Assembly (NCBI GenBank): GCA_965116555.1
Contig: OZ220698.1
Location: forward strand, 1,778,160 to 1,842,159
Origin: Dehalococcoidia bacterium
GTDB lineage: Bacteria > Chloroflexota > Dehalococcoidia > Lucifugimonadales > QGNO01
Length of the DNA stretch: 64,000 nt
Reading direction: 5' to 3'
Shown: in pieces, positions 29,167 through 36,738 of the stretch
Layout of the letters: each line of letters opens with the position of its first letter
Position numbering within the stretch: position 1 is the stretch's first letter
Notes under the pieces: generated by a model
The model's database searches: none
Seen by the model: only the letters and a program-made list of their open reading frames with translations
Told to the model about the DNA's origin: nothing
Made by a program: the position numbers and the translations under genes

Positions 29167-31233
29167 TTAGCGGGGAAACGCTTCCGCCACGCCGCCGTCC
29201 ACCGTTATCATGCAACCGGTTGTCTTGGCGGAACGGTCGCTGGCCAGGTATAGCGCTGCTTCCGCAACGTCACGGGGAGTAATGTAGTCTTGGAGGATGT
29301 TGCGACGCACGTAGAACTCCTCCAACTCGGAGACCGCTACGCCGTGCGCGGCGGCGCGCTGCTCACGCATCTCCTCCGACCATAGCTTTGAGTCCTGGAA
29401 AACGGAGTCCGGATTTATGATGTTGCTCCTGATGCCGTACCTGCCGTTTTCAATGGCCAGCACCCGGGCAAGCTGCGCTTCGGCGGCCTTGGCGGCGCTG
29501 TAAGCGCCAAAACCGGCGCCCGGCGCCGTAACGTTCTTGGTCACCACGAAGATCAGGCTGCCTCCCATGCCCTGAGCGCGCATAATCCGCACCGCTTCCT
29601 GCGAAACGATCAGATGAGCCGTGGCGTTAACGTCAAGACTCCTTTGCCAGCTGGACAATGGCAGCTCATCCAGCATCCCAGTGGGAGCTATTCCGGCGTT
29701 GGAGACCAGAACATCCAGCCCTCCAAACGCCAGCGCCGTGCGCTGGAATGCCCCGGCTACCTGCTCTTGATCCGTAACGTCCGCGGGCACGCCTATGCAC
29801 CTGTCTTCGCCCAGTCCGGCGTTGATCTCTTGCACCGCTTCGCCCACTCCATCGGCGTCTATGTCAACCAGCGACACCTGCGCTCCTTCCCGGGCAAGAC
29901 GAAAGGCGATGGCCTTGCCTATGCCGCTGGCTGCGCCCGTAACCAGGGCTATGCGCCTTGTCATCTCCTGCTCAGGCGGCAGAAGGCTCAGCTTGTATAG
30001 CTCCAAGGGCCAGTACTCGACGTCGTAGGCCTCCTTGGGCGGCAGGGAGACGTATTCATCGATCGAGTGTGCCCCGGCCATAATCGAGATGGTGTGGTGA
30101 TAAATGTCGGAGACGGTGTTCAGACCCCTGGTGTCTTTGCCCGCTACCCACATGCCCAGGCCGGGCACTAGGACAACCCTAGGATATGGGTCACGCATCT
30201 CGACAGGCCCATGCTTGTGCCTGTTGAACCAGTCGGTATACGTCCTGCGGTACTGTTCTACTCCCGCTTCCAGGCCACGACGCACGTCGCCGGCGTAGGA
30301 TGGGTCCGATACCTCTACCAGCAACGCATTTCTCTTCGTGCTCAGCATGTGGTCGGGCGTGGCTGCGCCAGCTTCCGCGAACCCCCTGACTCTTTTTGAG
30401 CCAGCGAATTCGAGCGCGTCCGCGCTATCTTCGAACCGCACCAGCACGCGTTTCTCCGGTGAAGCGCTGAGCAGCGACCTGAGCACAGGCGTCACCGTAC
30501 CGGCAACACGGCGGCGCTCCGCCTCCTCCAGGGCAGGCGTTTTGACTCCACCGAACGGCACCTTGGCGGACGCTCTCACCTTCAAGAACTGCTCTGCTTT
30601 GCTAATCAGCGCCACGTGGGCCTCATAGCTGGCCTGTGGAGTGAAGCCCCAGGTGATCAGGCCATGGTTGAGGAGCACCAGGCCCCTGGCTCCGGGCCGC
30701 TTCAACACAGCAGCAGCCACCTCCTTGGAAAGGAGAAAACCCGGACGCTGGTACTCCACCACTATGACATCCGGGCCGAAGACCTGCGCCAGCGCCTTGC
30801 GCGGGTTGCGCGTGTTGGTCAGAGAGAGAATGGCGTCCGCGTGCGTGTGGACGACGCTGTTCTGCGGCAGAAAGCCGTGGAGCAGCGTCTCTATGGAAGG
30901 ACGCGGCGAGCCGGGATCCATGACGCAGTGCGACAAGTATTCCACCATCCCGTCATCGGACATCTGGGACAGCTCAAAGAGCGGCAGAACATCGTCCATA
31001 CGCAGAGCGGGGAAGTCCCTGCGCCGCGCCGACTTCATGTCGGAGCCGGACCCCTTGACCAGCATCGCTTTGACCTGCCTGCCACGGAAGTCCGTTCTGG
31101 TCACTTTCAGCGAGGTGTTTCCTCCTCCCCAGAGCACCAGCGACGGCTCTTCCCCGATAAGGCGGCTCTGATAGACAAGCAGGTCCAGCTCATCCAGGTC
31201 GTTGACGTCCTCTGCAGACCAGCGGTTTTCCAT
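29167..31233 (-). CDS. Bifunctional class II aldolase (rhamnulose-1-phosphate aldolase-like) / short-chain dehydrogenase
   Basis: WGGGNTS.K, KGSG.D, PSIETLLH, HTHAD, TPDH; SDR domain TGAASGIG, NAG, YSAAK. Confidence 0.92.
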   Translation of the reverse strand: MENRWSAEDVNDLDELDLLVYQSRLIGEEPSLVLWGGGNTSLKVTRTDFRGRQVKAMLVKGSGSDMKSARRRDFPALRMDDVLPLFELSQMSDDGMVEYLSHCVMDPGSPRPSIETLLHGFLPQNSVVHTHADAILSLTNTRNPRKALAQVFGPDVIVVEYQRPGFLLSKEVAAAVLKRPGARGLVLLNHGLITWGFTPQASYEAHVALISKAEQFLKVRASAKVPFGGVKTPALEEAERRRVAGTVTPVLRSLLSASPEKRVLVRFEDSADALEFAGSKRVRGFAEAGAATPDHMLSTKRNALLVEVSDPSYAGDVRRGLEAGVEQYRRTYTDWFNRHKHGPVEMRDPYPRVVLVPGLGMWVAGKDTRGLNTVSDIYHHTISIMAGAHSIDEYVSLPPKEAYDVEYWPLELYKLSLLPPEQEMTRRIALVTGAASGIGKAIAFRLAREGAQVSLVDIDADGVGEAVQEINAGLGEDRCIGVPADVTDQEQVAGAFQRTALAFGGLDVLVSNAGIAPTGMLDELPLSSWQRSLDVNATAHLIVSQEAVRIMRAQGMGGSLIFVVTKNVTAPGAGFGAYSAAKAAEAQLARVLAIENGRYGIRSNIINPDSVFQDSKLWSEEMREQRAAAHGVAVSELEEFYVRRNILQDYITPRDVAEAALYLASDRSAKTTGCMITVDGGVAEAFPR

Positions 31234-31313
31234 ACCGGTTGCATCCTAACAGAGAGTCCGTGGTTCCTACAGCCACGCCCGCGTGGGGCCGGCGCCGCAT
31301 GAACCACAGATAT

Positions 31314-31343
31314 GCTGCAACGGAGCACGAGCTCCGTTGCAGC
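31314..31343. terminator. Perfect 13-bp hairpin downstream of the sulfurtransferase
   Basis: gctgcaacggagc-acga-gctccgttgcagc; no clear U tract. Confidence 0.5.
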
Positions 31344-31366
31344 GATTGCCTATGTCAAACGGCCGA

Positions 31367-32203
31367 CTACCTCTCCACCGGCACGCCTACTGCTGATCCC
31401 CACTCCGTCCAGGAGCCGTCGTAATTGCGTACGTTGGGATAGCCCAGCAGTTCGCTCAGGACAAACCAGGTGTGGGAAGACCGCTCACCTATGCGGCAGT
31501 AGGCCACTATCTCCTTATCGCCGCTTATGCCCTTCCCGCCGTATATCTCGCTAAGCTCATCGGCGGACTTGAACGTGCCGTCCTCGGCTACAGCGGTGGC
31601 CCATGGCACGTTGGCCGCGCCGGGGATGTGGCCGCCGCGCTGCGCCCCTTCCTGGGGCAGGTGCTCCGGCGCAAGGAGCTCTCCGCTGTACTCGGCGGGA
31701 GACCTCACGTCTACGAGCTCCAGGTTGGATAGATTGCCTGTAATGTAGTCGCGCAGAGCGCGGATGGAACAGTCCGGCTCCTGCGCTGTGTAGCTGGCGG
31801 CGGCAGGGTTTGGCGCATCCGTTGTGGTCGGCCTACCCTCGGCGAGCCACTTGGCGCGACCCCCGTTCATCAAGCGGGCGTCCTTGTGGCCGTAGTATTT
31901 CAGCTGCCAGTACGCCCAAGCGGCGAACCAGTTGTTGTTGTCTCCGTAGACCACCACGGTGGTGTCATTGCCTACGCCGGACTCCGACAATAACTTCTCG
32001 AAGTCTTCTTTGCTGGTCAGGTCGCGGCGTACGCCGTCCTGAAGCTGCGACTGCCAGTTGATGCCCACGGCGCCCTCAATGTGACCCTGGTCGTACGCCG
32101 TGGTGTCCACGTCGACCTCCAGCAGCCGCACGTTCTCGTCCTGGCCGTGCTGGGCCACCCACTCGGTGTCTACCAGGACATCCTGCTTTGCATAATCTGC
32201 CAT
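31367..32203 (-). CDS. Two-domain rhodanese/thiosulfate sulfurtransferase (CysA/SseA type)
   Basis: YDQGHIEGAV, VYGDNNNWFAAW, DVRSPAEYSG, GHIPGA, active loop YCRIGERSS, YDGSWTEW. Confidence 0.95.
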   Translation of the reverse strand: MADYAKQDVLVDTEWVAQHGQDENVRLLEVDVDTTAYDQGHIEGAVGINWQSQLQDGVRRDLTSKEDFEKLLSESGVGNDTTVVVYGDNNNWFAAWAYWQLKYYGHKDARLMNGGRAKWLAEGRPTTTDAPNPAAASYTAQEPDCSIRALRDYITGNLSNLELVDVRSPAEYSGELLAPEHLPQEGAQRGGHIPGAANVPWATAVAEDGTFKSADELSEIYGGKGISGDKEIVAYCRIGERSSHTWFVLSELLGYPNVRNYDGSWTEWGSAVGVPVER

Positions 32204-32229
32204 CGTTCTTTTCCTCCTGAATTCTCTGC

Positions 32230-32268
32230 AAAATAAAAAGCCCCTCGATTCCTAAGTTTGCGAGGGGC
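32230..32268 (-). terminator. Intrinsic terminator in the sulfurtransferase leader
   Basis: Minus strand: GCCCCTCG-13 nt-CGAGGGGC then TTTTTATTTT, between the leader ORF and the sulfurtransferase SD. Confidence 0.85.
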
Positions 32269-32294
32269 CTTGTTGCCTATTGAACAGCCACGTA

Positions 32295-32366
32295 CTACAA
32301 GCGACTATGCCCCACATGGTGAGTACATGTACATGTGCACGTCCGGACTAAGGTCGCATCAGTCAT
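32295..32366 (-). CDS. Cys-rich leader peptide, 23 aa (MTDATLVRTCTCTCTHHVGHSRL*)
   Basis: ATG 10 nt after the -10 box; three Cys codons in TCTCTC; followed by the terminator. Confidence 0.72.
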   Translation of the reverse strand: MTDATLVRTCTCTCTHHVGHSRL

Positions 32367-32376
32367 GGCGGTAACT

Positions 32377-32405
32377 ATGCTAGACGTTTACGTGCAAAGC
32401 GTCAA
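32377..32405 (-). promoter_or_regulatory. Sigma70-type promoter of the leader/sulfurtransferase
   Basis: TTGACG-17 nt-TAGCAT on the minus strand. Confidence 0.65.
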
Positions 32406-32440: not shown

Positions 32441-33928
32441 TCAGCGAGGTGGATTCTCACAGCCCAGGGAAGCCGTCAAGCGTTCGGCGCGGCGGGCGAT
32501 CGCTTTTGCAAGCCCGCCAAAAATCCAGGAGTGCAAGGGATACAGCGCGTACCAATAGACCAGGCCGGCCAATCCCTTGGGGATGAATGCCGCCGTTTGC
32601 TCCAGATGGGTTGCGCCATCCTGTGCTTGCCACACCTCGTATTGGAGCCAGGCCTGCCCTGGGAGCTTCATCTCGGCTCTCAGCCGAACCAAGTGGTCGG
32701 CTTCCAGGTCTTCCACTCGCCAGAAATCCACGGCATCGCCGACACGCAGGTCGTCGGGATGGCGGCGTCCTCTCCGTAGACCAGCGCCGCCAAGCAGGCG
32801 ATCCACCATCCCCCGTAATCGCCACGTCCAGTTGGCGAAATACCAGCCGCGAGTCCCGCCTATACCGGTAAACACCCGGTAGACGGCCCAGGCCGGAGCT
32901 GCAACCACGCGGCGCCTGCGCTCGATAATCATCCCTTTCCGAGATTCCAAACGAACCGGTTTCTCTAGCCCTGTGGTCGTGCCAGTGGCATCGCTCCACG
33001 ATGTGTCTATCCTTCCCTCGTCGAGTTCCCTTATCACGCCGCCGATGGCCGAGGCGTAGCCCTGAGGCTCGATATGGGGGAACAGAGCGCCAGCGAGACT
33101 GGTGGTCACTACGACGTCGTTGCGGAGCCCCTCGACGAGAGCTGCGCTGATACCGGCAGGTATGGGAGTCACCCAATGCACCCAGTAAGAGGACAGGCGA
33201 GGGGTCAGGACCGGGACGGGAAGCAGCAGCCGTCTGAGACCTCTTGCCTCGGCATAGCCCAGCATCAGTCCCTTGTAGGTGGTAACGTCTCTACCCCCAA
33301 TCTCGATTATGAGTCCATCGCTTTCCGGAACGTCTAGGGCAGAAACCAGGTATGCCAGTAGGTCATCGACGGCGATGGGCTGGATGCGGGAGTAGATCCA
33401 CTTGGGGCAGACCATGACCGGCAGCCGCTCCACAAGATAGCGAATCATCTCGAATGAGGTGCTGCCTGATCCGACGACTACGGCAGCCCGGAACTCTGTG
33501 ACAGGAACGCCGCCCTCCCTCAGCGCTTCTCCCGTCTCCTGGCGAGAGCGCAAGTGCTGAGAGAGATTGGCTCTCGGGTCCCCCAAGCCGCCTAGGTAAA
33601 TGATTCGGTTCACCCCTGCTTCCCTAGCTTCCTGACCAAACGTACGTGCCGCCTCAATGTCCAACTCGTGGAATTTGAAACCCTTGGACATGCTGTGAAT
33701 CAGGTAGTAGGCAGAGTCCACCCCGGCCAGCGCTTTTGATAGGGCTTGAGGACTCAGAACGTCGCCTACCGCTACCTCGACCTGGTCGGACCAGGAACGG
33801 GAAAGGGCCCGGGCCTGGCTGCGCACCAGAACACGCACGCGGTACCCTTCTTCCACCAGCCGGGGCACCAACCTTCCTCCTATGTACCCGGTGGCTCCGG
33901 TGACCAGAACCGTTTCGGGGCGGGTCAT
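32441..33928 (-). CDS. Atypical SDR/NAD(P)-binding protein with DUF2867 (YbjT-like)
   Basis: TGATGYIGGRL, YYLIHSM, GSTSFEMIRYL, C-terminal DFWRVE, AEMKLPG.AWL; start MTRPET after GGAGGAG. Confidence 0.9.
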   Translation of the reverse strand: MTRPETVLVTGATGYIGGRLVPRLVEEGYRVRVLVRSQARALSRSWSDQVEVAVGDVLSPQALSKALAGVDSAYYLIHSMSKGFKFHELDIEAARTFGQEAREAGVNRIIYLGGLGDPRANLSQHLRSRQETGEALREGGVPVTEFRAAVVVGSGSTSFEMIRYLVERLPVMVCPKWIYSRIQPIAVDDLLAYLVSALDVPESDGLIIEIGGRDVTTYKGLMLGYAEARGLRRLLLPVPVLTPRLSSYWVHWVTPIPAGISAALVEGLRNDVVVTTSLAGALFPHIEPQGYASAIGGVIRELDEGRIDTSWSDATGTTTGLEKPVRLESRKGMIIERRRRVVAAPAWAVYRVFTGIGGTRGWYFANWTWRLRGMVDRLLGGAGLRRGRRHPDDLRVGDAVDFWRVEDLEADHLVRLRAEMKLPGQAWLQYEVWQAQDGATHLEQTAAFIPKGLAGLVYWYALYPLHSWIFGGLAKAIARRAERLTASLGCENPPR

Positions 33929-34164: not shown

Positions 34165-34431
34165 ATGCTGCCTGAAGTAAAGCAAGACTCGCTGAAACGG
34201 CTAAACTATATAGAAGGACACCTGGCCGGCATCCGGCGCATGATTGAGGACGAGAAATACTGCGTCGACATCCTGAAGCAGACCTTCGCCGTGCGCCGCG
34301 CCATCCAGAAGGTGGAGTCCAAGCTGCTGGAAGGCCACCTGCACACACACGTCCTAGAGGGTGTGCGCAACGGCCATGACCAGGATGTCCTTGACGAGCT
34401 CATACAGCTCTACAACCTTTCGGAGAAGTGA
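34165..34431 (+). CDS. csoR: CsoR/RcnR family metal-sensing repressor
   Basis: RLNYIEGHLAGI.RMI, YC.DILKQ, LEGHLHTHV; directly upstream of copA. Confidence 0.9.
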   Translation: MLPEVKQDSLKRLNYIEGHLAGIRRMIEDEKYCVDILKQTFAVRRAIQKVESKLLEGHLHTHVLEGVRNGHDQDVLDELIQLYNLSEK

Positions 34432-34434
34432 CGC

Positions 34435-36738
34435 GTGGCCGTTCAAGACATAGATAACCAGCCCAGGCAGAAGATAGGCCTGAACATAGGGGGCATGACC
34501 TGCGCCGCCTGCGTGTTCCACGTGGAAAAGGCGCTCAAAGAGGTCGATGGAGTCGTCTCCGTCGACGTCAACCTGGCCACGGAGCGCGCTACACTCCACT
34601 ACCTGGACGATGTCGCTACCCTGGACGATTTCGACCGCGCCGTGGCCGACGCAGGCTACTCCGTGGAGGGCATAGCCGGTGAAGAGGAAGAGCAGCGCGA
34701 CAGGGAACGCTTGGCCCGAACCAAGCTCATCAAGGACCAGCGCAACCGGTTTCTCGTCGCTGGCGGCCTTGGTGTCGTCATCTTCCTTGGCAGCTTCAAA
34801 GAGTGGTTCCCCTGGATGCCATCGTTCCTGCAGAACTGGTACGTGCTGTGGGCACTGGCGACTCCGGTGCAGTTCTGGGCGGGCGCTCAGTTCTACAAGG
34901 GAGCTTGGAGCGCGGCCAGGCATCGCACCACCAACATGAACACGTTGATCGCGATGGGCACCGGCGTAGCCTACGTCTTCAGCGCCACGATAACCCTGTT
35001 CCCCGACCTCTTCATCGCTGAAGGGGTGGAGCCCGCCGTCTACTTCGATACCGCCGCCATCATCATCGCGCTCATCCTGCTGGGCCGATTCCTGGAAGCC
35101 AGGGCCAGGGGACAGACCTCCGAGGCCATCCGCAAGCTGATGGGCCTGCGACCCAAGACGGCCCGCGTCCTGCGCGGCGACGCCGAGATCGACGTACCTA
35201 TAGAGCAGGTGGCCGTAGGCGACCTTGTCATCGTGCGTCCCGGCGAGAGCGTGCCCGTGGACGGCGAGGTGACACAGGGCGCGTCCGCCATCGACGAGTC
35301 GATGCTAAGCGGCGAGAGCATTCCCGTGTACAAGGAGGCCGGATCTCCGGTTTACGCCGCCACTATCAACACGACGGGCAGCTTCCAGTTCCGCGCCACC
35401 AAGGTCGGCAAGGACACCGCCTTGTCGCGCATCATCCGGCTTGTGGAAGAGGCGCAAGGCTCCAGGGCGCCCATCCAGCGCCTCGCCGATGTTGTGTCCA
35501 GCTACTTTGTGCCAGCCGTAATCGTCATAGCTGCCGCCACCTTCGTCACCTGGCTGCTGCTTGGGCCGGACCCTGCCTTCACCTTCGCCCTGCTCAACAT
35601 GGTGGCCGTGCTCGTCATCGCCTGCCCCTGCGCCCTGGGCCTTGCCACCCCCACTGCCATCATGGTCGCCACCGGCAAGGGCGCCGAGGGCGGCATCCTG
35701 ATTCGCAACGCTCAAGCCCTGGAGCGCGCCCACAAGGTGGACACCGTGGTATTGGACAAGACCGGCACCCTCACCCTGGGCAAACCCGCCGTCACCGACA
35801 TCCTGACTGAAGGCATAGCGGAAGACGACCTACTCAGGCTGGCAGCATCCGCCGAACGCGGCTCGGAGCACCCCCTTGCCAGGGCCATCGTCGTCGCCGC
35901 GGAGGAGCGCGGCCTCGCCCTTGACCAAGCTGCGGAGTTCCAGGCCCTGCCCGGCCAGGGTATAGAGGCCAGGGTCGAAGGCTCGATGGTCACACTGGGC
36001 AACCTGGCGTTGATGCGGCTCAAGGAGTACGACCTCAACGGACTGGAAACGAAGGCTCCGGAGCTTTCCGACCGGGGCAGGACCCCCATGTTCGTCGCTG
36101 TGGATCGGGAGGTCAAAGGAATCATCGCCGTAGCCGATGCTATCCGCCCCGAGTCGAAACAGGCGGTACAGGCCATGCAGGATATGGGACTTGAGGTCGT
36201 CATGCTCACCGGCGACAACCCCCGCGCCGCCCAGGCTATCGCCGCCGAGGCCGGCATCCAAAGTGTCCTCTCGGAGATGACGCCCGACCGGAAGACGGCG
36301 CAGGTGCGGGCCCTCCAGCAGGAAGGCCGCATCGTAGCCATGGTCGGCGACGGCATCAACGACGCCCCCGCGCTGGCCCAAGCCGACGTGGGCATAGCCA
36401 TCGGCGCCGGGATCGATGTCGCCATGGAAGCCGCCGACATCACCCTCATGCACGACGACGTACGCGCCATACCAAGGGCCGTCAACCTGTCGCGTGCCGC
36501 CGTTCGCACCATCAAGCAGAACCTGTTCTGGGCCTTCTTCTACAACACCGCGCTCATCCCCGTGGCGGCGGGCGTCCTCTACCTGTTCTTTGCCAATGGC
36601 GGCGTGCCCTCCGCGTTGAGCTACTTCCTGGGAGAGTACGGCTTCCTCAATCCCGTGCTCGCCGCCGGAGCCATGGCCGTCAGCTCGGTCAGCGTGCTGA
36701 GCAACTCGCTGCGCCTGCGCCGCTTCAAGATAGGGTAG
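34435..36738 (+). CDS. copA: Cu(I)-translocating P1B-1 ATPase
   Basis: HMA GMTCAAC, TGES-type loop (LSGES), CPC, DKTGT, HP, GDGINDAP, YN, M..SS. Confidence 0.96.
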   Translation: MAVQDIDNQPRQKIGLNIGGMTCAACVFHVEKALKEVDGVVSVDVNLATERATLHYLDDVATLDDFDRAVADAGYSVEGIAGEEEEQRDRERLARTKLIKDQRNRFLVAGGLGVVIFLGSFKEWFPWMPSFLQNWYVLWALATPVQFWAGAQFYKGAWSAARHRTTNMNTLIAMGTGVAYVFSATITLFPDLFIAEGVEPAVYFDTAAIIIALILLGRFLEARARGQTSEAIRKLMGLRPKTARVLRGDAEIDVPIEQVAVGDLVIVRPGESVPVDGEVTQGASAIDESMLSGESIPVYKEAGSPVYAATINTTGSFQFRATKVGKDTALSRIIRLVEEAQGSRAPIQRLADVVSSYFVPAVIVIAAATFVTWLLLGPDPAFTFALLNMVAVLVIACPCALGLATPTAIMVATGKGAEGGILIRNAQALERAHKVDTVVLDKTGTLTLGKPAVTDILTEGIAEDDLLRLAASAERGSEHPLARAIVVAAEERGLALDQAAEFQALPGQGIEARVEGSMVTLGNLALMRLKEYDLNGLETKAPELSDRGRTPMFVAVDREVKGIIAVADAIRPESKQAVQAMQDMGLEVVMLTGDNPRAAQAIAAEAGIQSVLSEMTPDRKTAQVRALQQEGRIVAMVGDGINDAPALAQADVGIAIGAGIDVAMEAADITLMHDDVRAIPRAVNLSRAAVRTIKQNLFWAFFYNTALIPVAAGVLYLFFANGGVPSALSYFLGEYGFLNPVLAAGAMAVSSVSVLSNSLRLRRFKIG

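Follow-up and report, generated by a model that had tools for sequence, protein, structure and literature searches.

What is the role of a short reading frame with three cysteine codons that lies between a promoter and an intrinsic terminator, directly in front of a rhodanese gene? This question is raised by the region 32203-32405 on the minus strand of a 64,000-nucleotide (nt) stretch of the contig OZ220698.1 (positions 1,778,160 to 1,842,159 of the forward strand) from the Dehalococcoidia bacterium assembly GCA_965116555.1, in the following referred to as the window. Based on the comparison with related genomes, the recurrence of the arrangement within the same genome and the folding of the transcript, the leader is probably a ribosome-mediated (leader-peptide) transcription attenuator, which would sense the cysteine supply via charged tRNA-Cys. 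An earlier note, made from the sequence of the window, had proposed such a cysteine-sensing element. The promoter, the near-leaderless ATG, the short open reading frame (sORF) of 23 codons with three Cys codons, the terminator, the Shine-Dalgarno (SD) sequence and the rhodanese gene were all found where it had placed them. The features of the leader are as follows (an asterisk after a peptide marks the stop codon).

32405-32400, minus strand: -35 hexamer TTGACG, by sequence reading and consensus scan; invariant in 10 same-genus genomes
32382-32377, minus strand: -10 hexamer TAGCAT, separated from the -35 hexamer by a 17-nt spacer, by sequence reading and consensus scan; invariant in the genus alignment
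32366, minus strand: start codon ATG of the sORF, 10 nt past the -10 hexamer and without an SD sequence before it (AGTTACCGCC), by sequence reading
32366..32295, minus strand: leader sORF, 23 codons plus stop, MTDATLVRTCTCTCTHHVGHSRL*, from the ORF listing; unannotated
32325..32339, minus strand: putative sensor codons Cys10 (TGC, 32339-32337), Cys12 (TGT, 32333-32331) and Cys14 (TGT, 32327-32325), with Thr codons in between
32318-32313 and 32313-32309, minus strand: the motifs CAUGUG and GGGGC, respectively, positions checked
32297..32313, minus strand: region 2, predicted 5' strand of the antiterminator, GGGGC...CGCUUGU, lying in the final six codons of the sORF and extending to the stop codon
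32261..32280, minus strand: region 3, AUAGGCAACAAGGCCCCUCG, used both by the predicted 3' strand of the antiterminator and by the 5' arm of the terminator (32271-32261)
32271-32261 and 32247-32238, minus strand: terminator hairpin, AAGGCCCCUCG / CGAGGGGCUU, with a 13-nt loop
32240-32230, minus strand: U-run CUUUUUAUUUU (U5AU4 tract); 3' arm and U-run together comprise 32230..32247
32218-32213, minus strand: SD sequence AGGAGG of the rhodanese gene, by sequence reading; conserved in the genus
31367..32203, minus strand: rhodanese gene, ATG at 32203, 278 amino acids, two PF00581 domains (Pfam)

With three Cys in five codons, the sORF differs clearly from the long ORFs of the same genome, in which Cys accounts for 0.79%. 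The terminator begins 23 nt past the stop codon of the sORF and ends 26 nt ahead of the rhodanese ATG. Of the 11 base pairs in its stem, 7 are G-C, and each of the 10 genomes compared has conserved the terminator. The sequence GCCCC within region 3 (32268-32264) has two alternative partners, either the GGGGC at the end of the sORF (32313-32309) or the GGGGC of the 3' arm. The consensus terminator scan was limited to loops of 3-8 nt and missed this hairpin, because its loop of 13 nt exceeds the limit of 8. Therefore, a terminator scan of our own was written.

The comparison within the genus comprised 10 genomes, i.e. the window's own and nine further ones with a rhodanese of 91-99% identity, from which the 260 nt upstream of the rhodanese gene were aligned. 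Conservation starts exactly at the -35 hexamer and spans the -10 hexamer, the ATG, the sORF, the terminator and the SD sequence; the DNA before the -35 hexamer is unalignable. In about half of the genomes the upstream neighbour is a different gene, and the block is intact there as well. Since the conservation begins at -35 and the upstream neighbour varies, promoter, sORF, terminator and rhodanese gene form a conserved module. The hairpin is not the terminator of the NmrA/DUF2867 gene found upstream in the window. Across all species of the genus the ATG lies 9-11 nt past the -10 hexamer, and this spacing points to a leader mRNA with a 5' untranslated region of about 1-5 nt and no SD sequence.

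The inspection of orthologous leaders, which the earlier note had suggested as a check, turned out in favour of its reading, as 9/10 genomes retain the sORF in frame with the full set of three Cys codons, and the neighbouring codons vary. The Cys residues are unchanged, and the sole change in a Cys codon is a synonymous exchange between TGC and TGT at the first Cys. The Thr codons in between are changed to Ser, Met or synonymous Thr codons in the relatives (TCSCMCT, TCSCTCT), whose leader peptides read MTDATLVRTCTCTC.., MTKAFVWTCTCTC.., MTNAFVQTCSCMC.. and MTEAFVQTCSCTC... Because of the replacement by Ser or Met, a co-sensing of threonine was rejected, and of the Thr-Cys repeats put forward in the earlier note the Thr codons do not belong to the putative sensor. 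The N-terminal codons of the sORF are free to vary (MTDATLVR, MTKAFVW, MTNAFVQ, MTEAFVQ). Apart from a frameshift in one genome, which is discussed below, the indels in the sORF comprise 3 nt each (two gap patterns in four genomes), unlike those in the terminator loop with 1-2 nt. These patterns of substitutions and indels suggest that the sORF is translated.

A different kind of constraint was observed for the 3' half of the sORF. Its last nine codons are nearly invariant in nucleotides, and the only two changes are both non-synonymous (H/Q and S/R), which is why the constraint on this half is attributed to the RNA and not to the protein. Region 3 is invariant in the genus except for one G/A change, and the U-run is kept in all relatives. 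DNA contigs of relatives from other samples showed the same kinds of variant with unchanged Cys codons. Since these contigs possibly belong to the same species, they are not counted as independent evidence. Altogether, the comparison supports the reading of the leader as a putative attenuator.

The folding of the leader was calculated with ViennaRNA. To represent a ribosome, all RNA between the 5' end and a point 12 nt beyond the first nucleotide of the A-site codon was masked. For the nascent transcript, the RNA ended just before the 3' arm of the terminator. Without a ribosome, the sORF in the nascent transcript folds on itself with -34 kcal/mol, whereby GGGGC is sequestered and the 5' arm of the terminator stays free. 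With a ribosome at Cys10, Cys12 or Cys14, GGGGC (32313-32309) pairs with GCCCC (32268-32264) at -18.7 to -19.1 kcal/mol and the 5' arm is sequestered. The pairing of region 2 (32297-32313) with 32264-32280 occurs under a ribosome at any of the Cys codons, the helix being extended by GU/AC plus either GCUUGU/AUAGGC or CUUGU/ACAAG. With a ribosome at the UAG, region 2 is covered, and the 5' arm is without a partner and free. The GGGGC/GCCCC antiterminator of the earlier note was thus reproduced as the minimum free energy (MFE) structure of the nascent transcript with a ribosome on any Cys codon, and it is lost if the ribosome stands on the stop codon or no ribosome is present. The predicted folds thereby follow the 1:2 / 2:3 / 3:4 scheme of classical attenuators. 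The second proposed pairing, between CACAUG over the Cys codons and CAUGUG, held in part: CAUGUG lies at the position given and this pairing is one of several alternatives, but the MFE structure uses ACGUG/CAUGU and GUCC/GGGC. The SD sequence of the rhodanese gene is no part of the terminator hairpin and pairs weakly and inconsistently in folds of the whole leader, so that transcriptional control is favoured over translational control. Moreover, no pairing between the Cys tract and the SD sequence is predicted, and the intrinsic terminator lies in between.

From these data the following course of events can be proposed. Transcription would start a few nucleotides before the AUG of the 23-codon leader ORF. 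At a plentiful supply of Cys-tRNA, the ribosome would reach the UAG and cover GGGGC...CUUGU; with region 2 covered, the terminator of AAGGCCCCUCG / CGAGGGGCUU and the U-run would form, and transcription would stop before the rhodanese gene. At a scarce supply, the ribosome would pause at Cys10, Cys12 or Cys14, so that the upstream part of the leader would be covered and GGGGC...CUUGU would be free. The latter could then pair with the just-made ...ACAAGGCCCC and sequester the 5' arm of the terminator, and RNA polymerase would read into the rhodanese gene. In the absence of any ribosome the leader would fold on itself and the terminator would form. We infer the transcription start, the translation of the sORF, the termination, the kinetics and the response to cysteine from sequence. 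Furthermore, the element would be part of a small regulon ('ribulon'), with related leaders before a sulfite reductase gene and between this gene and cysH-cysC-sat.

The related leaders were found in a genome scan for G+C-rich hairpins followed by a T-run, which gave 245 sites, about 66 of them with a long ORF within 200 nt, and the short ORFs in front of these were listed. A Cys-rich sORF in leader position was present at 3 of the about 66 sites, and all three lie before sulfur-assimilation genes. Besides the leader in the window, these are:

G000 C1:216708-216609, minus strand: sulfite reductase leader, about 1.6 Mb from the rhodanese leader
G000 C1:214809-214625, minus strand: cysH leader, intercistronic, between the sulfite reductase gene and cysH, about 1.6 Mb from the rhodanese leader

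The sulfite reductase leader comprises the promoter-like sequence TTGACA-16-TACACT, an ATG 9-10 nt later without an SD sequence and the sORF MSTIICTCSCMK*. Directly past its stop codon, GGGGUAAGCGUU..AACGCUUCAACCCCU constitute the predicted antiterminator, followed by the terminator (ACCCCUCUCAG/CUGGGAGGGU plus U-run) and the gene for a NirA/Sir-type sulfite reductase of 589 amino acids. In this leader the full-length MFE structure itself switches: the antiterminator is predicted with a ribosome at Cys 1 or 2, the terminator with a ribosome at Cys 3 or at the stop codon. A compensatory change was also observed in the closing pair of its antiterminator, where GGGGU/ACCCC, present in most genomes, is changed to GGGGC/GCCCC in three of them (L115, L116, L121). 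The cysH leader contains an ORF of 41 codons, MRRLITGYAGLDESFLSSADVRTCSCMCSCCFPQGGRTRFA*, with the core ..TCSCMCSCC.. and the end ..DVRTCSCMCSCCFPQGGRTRFA*. The start codon of this ORF, with GGAGAGGG before it, lies over the final codons of the sulfite reductase gene, so that the ORF overlaps the stop codon of that gene. Behind the ORF follow the terminator, GCCCCCUUU..AAAGGGGGC with a U-run, and then cysH, cysC and sat.

Both additional leaders are kept in 10/10 genomes of the genus and in the sister genus. The sulfite reductase sORF carries three Cys in 8/10 genomes, the first Cys being replaced by Arg in the other 2/10, and the indels in the cysH-leader sORF (15 nt and 3 nt) are in frame. 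The genes behind the three leaders belong to the metabolism of the amino acid that would be sensed, i.e. thiosulfate sulfurtransferase, sulfite reductase and cysH-cysC-sat. Since the three leaders have a T-C-S-C-M type core in common, together with the string GCACAUGUNCNUGUA, the latter absent elsewhere in the genome, the data suggest that they are paralogues. A BLAST search of the rhodanese leader against its own genome gave no second copy, and the paralogy is visible only in the short T-C-S-C-M core. With respect to codon usage, UGU accounts for 7/11 of the leader Cys codons, compared to 22% of the Cys codons in long ORFs, and at the second and third Cys positions UGU is used without exception, both across the 10 species and across the three leaders. 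The genome contains one tRNA-Cys(GCA) gene. The finding of two more leaders with a Cys-rich sORF and a terminator in the same genome, before sulfite reductase and cysH, strengthens the cysteine-linked attenuation proposed by the earlier note.

Three other terminator-adjacent Cys-rich ORFs were rejected. Two of them run antisense, the first to a NuoI-like ferredoxin gene and the second inside a coding region, and the third is the C-terminal part of an IscA/HesB-like gene. Separately, the sORF MAVRRYCCCQI* was noted at G000 C1:573301-573336 on the plus strand, 43 nt upstream of the gene for a protein of 346 amino acids, which by its N-terminal sequence alone looks like a pyridoxal phosphate-dependent D-cysteine desulfhydrase/1-aminocyclopropane-1-carboxylate deaminase. 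At this locus a CCCCC..GGGGG hairpin overlaps the putative SD sequence, and the sORF may lie inside a TTGACA-17-GATACT promoter.

The question arises to what extent the described features could be expected by chance. The promoter match is at chance level, with 2 matches found in 4 kb compared to 1.0 expected from shuffled sequence. Of random genome positions, 1.24% showed a short ORF in which 3 or more out of 7 codons are Cys, and there are about 150 CxCxC frames in the genome. Among all 245 terminator-like sites, 6 distinct Cys-rich sORFs were counted compared to about 3 expected, i.e. they are not significantly over-represented. Hence the single features are mostly within chance, and it is the conservation together with the recurrence that raises the leader above it.

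Several observations weigh against an attenuator and have to be considered together. The putative sensor comprises only three Cys codons, and these are not adjacent. The fold of the whole leader is no stabler than that of shuffled sequence (z = -0.8), and the full-length MFE structure of the rhodanese leader keeps the terminator at every ribosome position. The latter is explained by the terminator being the stabler helix, and because of it the proposed switch must be a kinetic, co-transcriptional one, like that of other attenuators. Within the genus, the helices of the rhodanese leader showed no covariation, the paired positions being either invariant or changed on one side only. In one genome (L084 on G006:C4, a metagenome-assembled genome (MAG) of 210 contigs), a deletion of 1 nt at codon 5-6 puts the Cys codons out of the AUG frame and would let the ribosome continue across the terminator. 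The deletion is either an assembly error or a real loss, i.e. a natural constitutive variant. A leaderless or near-leaderless initiation in this lineage is an assumption of the model. The nucleotide string GCACATGTNCNTGTA, which the three leaders have in common, could mean a binding site at the nucleotide level. Finally, contigs from public metatranscriptomes contained only parts of the relatives' rhodanese ORFs and never covered the leader.

Among the explanations that could replace the attenuator, the one suggested by the common string survives best, but is still improbable. Here, a protein, a small RNA or a DNA-binding factor would read GCACAUGUNCNUGUA or the conserved 3' half of the leader and regulate the terminator without translation, the ORF being incidental. 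That the string is present in each of the three leaders and absent from the rest of the genome would fit this, as would the exclusive use of UGU and never UGC at Cys12 and Cys14, by which the nucleotides are constrained beyond the residues, and the nucleotide conservation of the sORF 3' half with its solely non-synonymous changes. The string, however, was defined post hoc from three sites with about 0.85 chance matches expected, it is not palindromic in 2/3 leaders, and it varies in the relatives (ACAUGUUCUUGUAUGUGU, ACCUGUUCC...) while the Cys codons and the frame persist. The conserved start codon with its spacing to the -10 hexamer and the sORF indels, most of which are multiples of three, likewise speak for translation of the frame. 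A permissive Rfam scan of 2.5 kb revealed no relevant family, the best match over the hairpin being ctRNA_p42d with 21.3 bits compared to a gathering threshold of 50 (E = 0.2). The preference for UGU can be explained by translation as well; the use of minor codons is known from the enterobacterial leu leader.

Quite improbable is a Cys-sensing sORF that acts mainly on translation or mRNA stability by unmasking the SD sequence of the rhodanese gene, as in mycobacterial Ms5788A. The sole Cys-sensing sORF dissected experimentally does act by SD sequestration (10.1101/834739), and a hairpin kept at every ribosome position in the full-length MFE structures would agree with such a mode. In the rhodanese leader, however, the SD sequence (32218-32213) lies 12 nt past the U-run and outside the hairpin, with the weak and inconsistent pairing described above. 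The stem is canonical, G+C-rich, immediately followed by U5AU4 and conserved in all relatives, and a masking of the SD sequence would not need a U tract. The two sister leaders and the acidobacterial leaders described below likewise end in U-runs.

A functional Cys/His-rich micropeptide (e.g. metal- or persulfide-binding), co-expressed with the rhodanese, with the hairpin as a partial terminator or stabiliser, would account for the conserved C-x-C-x-C-x-H-H pattern and could be connected with the genes for a CsoR-type repressor and copA about 2 kb away. This is highly improbable, since conservation is confined to the Cys codons and the RNA-pairing segment, whereas the N-terminus is free and the changes at the C-terminus (H/Q, S/R) are non-conservative. 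The tails of the sister leaders are unrelated (..CMK*, ..CCFPQGGRTRFA*), with only the Cys core in common, and one would not expect a peptide gene to be separated from its supposed partner by a strong terminator. Hardly tenable, finally, and largely refuted by the genus comparison, is a chance ORF beside an ordinary terminator of the upstream NmrA/DUF2867 gene: the hairpin does lie downstream of this same-strand gene ending at 32441, the promoter match alone is at chance level and short ORFs rich in Cys are no rarity in this G+C-rich genome, but the hairpin follows about 170 nt past the upstream stop codon, the block starting at -35 is intact in the half of the genomes with a different upstream gene, and three leaders all before sulfur genes are not explicable in this way.

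With the cysteine-sensing attenuator as the preferred reading, its distribution outside the genus was considered. In about 100 orthologous rhodanese loci, 300 nt upstream were scanned for at least 3 Cys in 7 codons, and 10 of the loci showed a Cys-rich short ORF on the sense strand compared to 2 on the antisense strand. The strongest cases are seven Acidobacteriota MAGs (L013, L014, L016, L020, L036, L040, L047), in which poly-Cys sORFs lie 120-250 nt upstream of the orthologous rhodanese gene, with the runs CCCICC, CCCCRCSVC, CCCTC and CCC and a common ..SSGAGRL.. tail. Their terminators comprise 14 bp and U6-7 (ACCCACCGCCAGAG..GGUGGGU6-7), with a 5' arm (CGCCAGAG) that shows complementarity with the tail codons (CUCUGGCG) at the 3' end of the sORF. 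They form a separate, homologous family of candidate Cys attenuators. One further sORF, MYHLRPCCRCTSC*, was found in the same order as the window's organism (L092), and at the sulfite reductase loci of this order four further genomes showed Cys-rich leaders, with none on the antisense strand. The Cys-rich sORF of a Dehalococcoidia MAG (L001) was not counted as support, because it probably lies inside a promoter-like spacer and no terminator is present. A pattern scan of metagenomes for more leader homologues gave 0 hits.

These findings lead to a broader proposal, for which we consider the chances to be even: a ribosome-sensed Cys regulon that is genus-wide and possibly much wider, in which paralogous, near-leaderless, UGU-biased C-x-C-x-C leaders tie a CysA2-type rhodanese to the whole pathway from sulfate to sulfide. 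One of the attenuators would be intercistronic, with translational coupling between its ORF and the end of the sulfite reductase gene, and unrelated Cys leaders would have been recruited at orthologous rhodaneses in Acidobacteriota and in the mycobacterial cysA2 operon (10.1101/834739). If true, this recurrence would place the rhodanese at the core of sulfur assimilation, as an enzyme regulated by cysteine, and not among the enzymes of detoxification.

The rhodanese gene belongs to a genome of 2.37 Mb on one contig, and the DNA runs that hold its sequence are sponge or marine metagenomes. The closest solved structures, 3hwi and 3aax (E about 1e-106), were deposited as thiosulfate sulfurtransferases; we take them to be CysA2/CysA3 of M. 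tuberculosis, and the rhodanese is labelled here as CysA2/CysA3-type. Its nearest named relatives are found in Dehalococcoidia and SAR202 MAGs with 70-72% identity. A perfect 13-bp hairpin without a U-run, GCUGCAACGGAGC-UCGU-GCUCCGUUGCAGC (31310-31345, minus strand), directly follows the stop codon, and for this reason the gene looks monocistronic. The next gene past it codes for a class II aldolase-SDR fusion (31233..29167). On the other side, beyond the same-strand NmrA/DUF2867 gene ending at 32441, the CsoR-type metal-sensing repressor gene (PF02583) and, immediately behind it, the copA-type P-type ATPase gene are located on the plus strand (34165-36738), about 2 kb from the rhodanese gene and with no link to the leader.

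Leader-peptide attenuation is textbook knowledge for Trp, His, Leu, Thr, Phe and Ile/Val, and the classical examples from enterobacterial amino-acid operons are trpL, hisL, leuL, thrL, pheL and ilv (Yanofsky model). The rhodanese leader resembles them in its putative sensor codons, the stop codon by region 2, the mutually exclusive 2:3 and 3:4 helices and the U-run terminator. The predicted 'superattenuation' without a loaded ribosome and the use of minor codons, as in leuL, are further likenesses. On the other hand, cysteine would be sensed here, initiation is apparently leaderless instead of SD-led, and the target is a rhodanese instead of a biosynthetic operon proper. Furthermore, the lineage is Chloroflexota/Dehalococcoidia-like, and the sequence is unrelated, with no match to an Rfam leader family.

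For cysteine, two predicted systems can be compared. The uORFC-8-2 motif upstream of cysS in Rhodobacterales comprises a predicted upstream ORF (uORF) with Cys codons and an intrinsic terminator (Brewer et al. 2021, PMC8632094). Both this motif and the leaders described here are bioinformatic only and have conserved Cys codons followed by a terminator stem with U-run. The motif differs by its two tandem Cys codons (14, 15) inside the first stem, its cysteinyl-tRNA synthetase target and its occurrence in Alphaproteobacteria, and there is no sequence relationship. In Actinobacteria, the candidate Cys leader peptides upstream of cys or cbs operons are likewise encoded by short ORFs, in which the Cys codons stand in runs close to the stop (Seliverstov et al. 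2005, PMC1262725). In contrast to those leaders, for which no terminator was recognisable and Rho-dependence was suggested, each of the three leaders here shows a clear intrinsic terminator. In our literature searches, no terminator-type Cys leader was found for Chloroflexota or Acidobacteriota, nor before rhodanese, sulfite reductase or cysH genes. Accordingly, the statement of the earlier note that it knew of no such description holds for this lineage and these genes, but is too wide for the type of element, since a Cys-codon uORF with a terminator had already been predicted before cysS of Rhodobacterales (PMC8632094).

The closest counterpart in function are the leaderless polycysteine sORFs of M. 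smegmatis, which are cysteine-responsive attenuators (Canestrari et al. 2020, 10.1101/834739). According to their authors, uORF-mediated attenuation had not been described for cysteine before, and one of them, Ms5788A, controls a cysA2-containing operon by masking of the SD sequence, i.e. on the level of translation (10.1101/834739). This 'Cys ribulon' (Ms5788A/Rv0815A and others) and the rhodanese leader share an unannotated short ORF at or near the mRNA 5' end (here predicted) without an SD sequence and with Cys codons as the (here putative) sensor. Common to both are also several independent loci per genome before cysteine or sulfur genes, three in the present case, and a CysA2-type thiosulfate sulfurtransferase as one of the targets. 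The differences concern the codons and the RNA structure: at least two and up to eight consecutive Cys codons in mycobacteria, compared to C-x-C-x-C with Thr, Ser or Met in between in every genome of the genus (the cysH leader alone of the three ends in CC), and a very stable duplex masking the SD sequence in the dissected case, compared to an intrinsic terminator with a competing predicted antiterminator and an SD sequence outside. There is no sequence homology, and the phylum is another one.

So far, the cysteine case has been shown only in mycobacteria, where it is translational, and predicted for cysS in one alphaproteobacterial order. The present data point to the classical version, complete with terminator and antiterminator and occurring three times within a single genome of 2.4 Mb, in an uncultured sponge- or marine-associated member of the Chloroflexota. 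No new mechanism is revealed by this known type of switch; its value lies in the new phylum, in the three-leader regulon with an intercistronic, coupled attenuator and in the repeated link between Cys leaders and CysA2-type rhodaneses. If confirmed, ribosome-sensed cysteine control would reach new phyla, a cheap annotation rule for MAGs would result (a Cys-codon sORF plus terminator indicating a cysteine-regulated gene), and the CysA2-type rhodaneses, whose role is poorly defined, would gain a context in cysteine metabolism and sulfur assimilation. By sequence the leaders have no relative among the described elements, and two defining mycobacterial features, consecutive Cys codons and predicted SD masking, are absent from the rhodanese leader. 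Altogether, in its mode of action the element most likely corresponds to trpL or hisL, and its physiological role would be that of the mycobacterial Cys ribulon.

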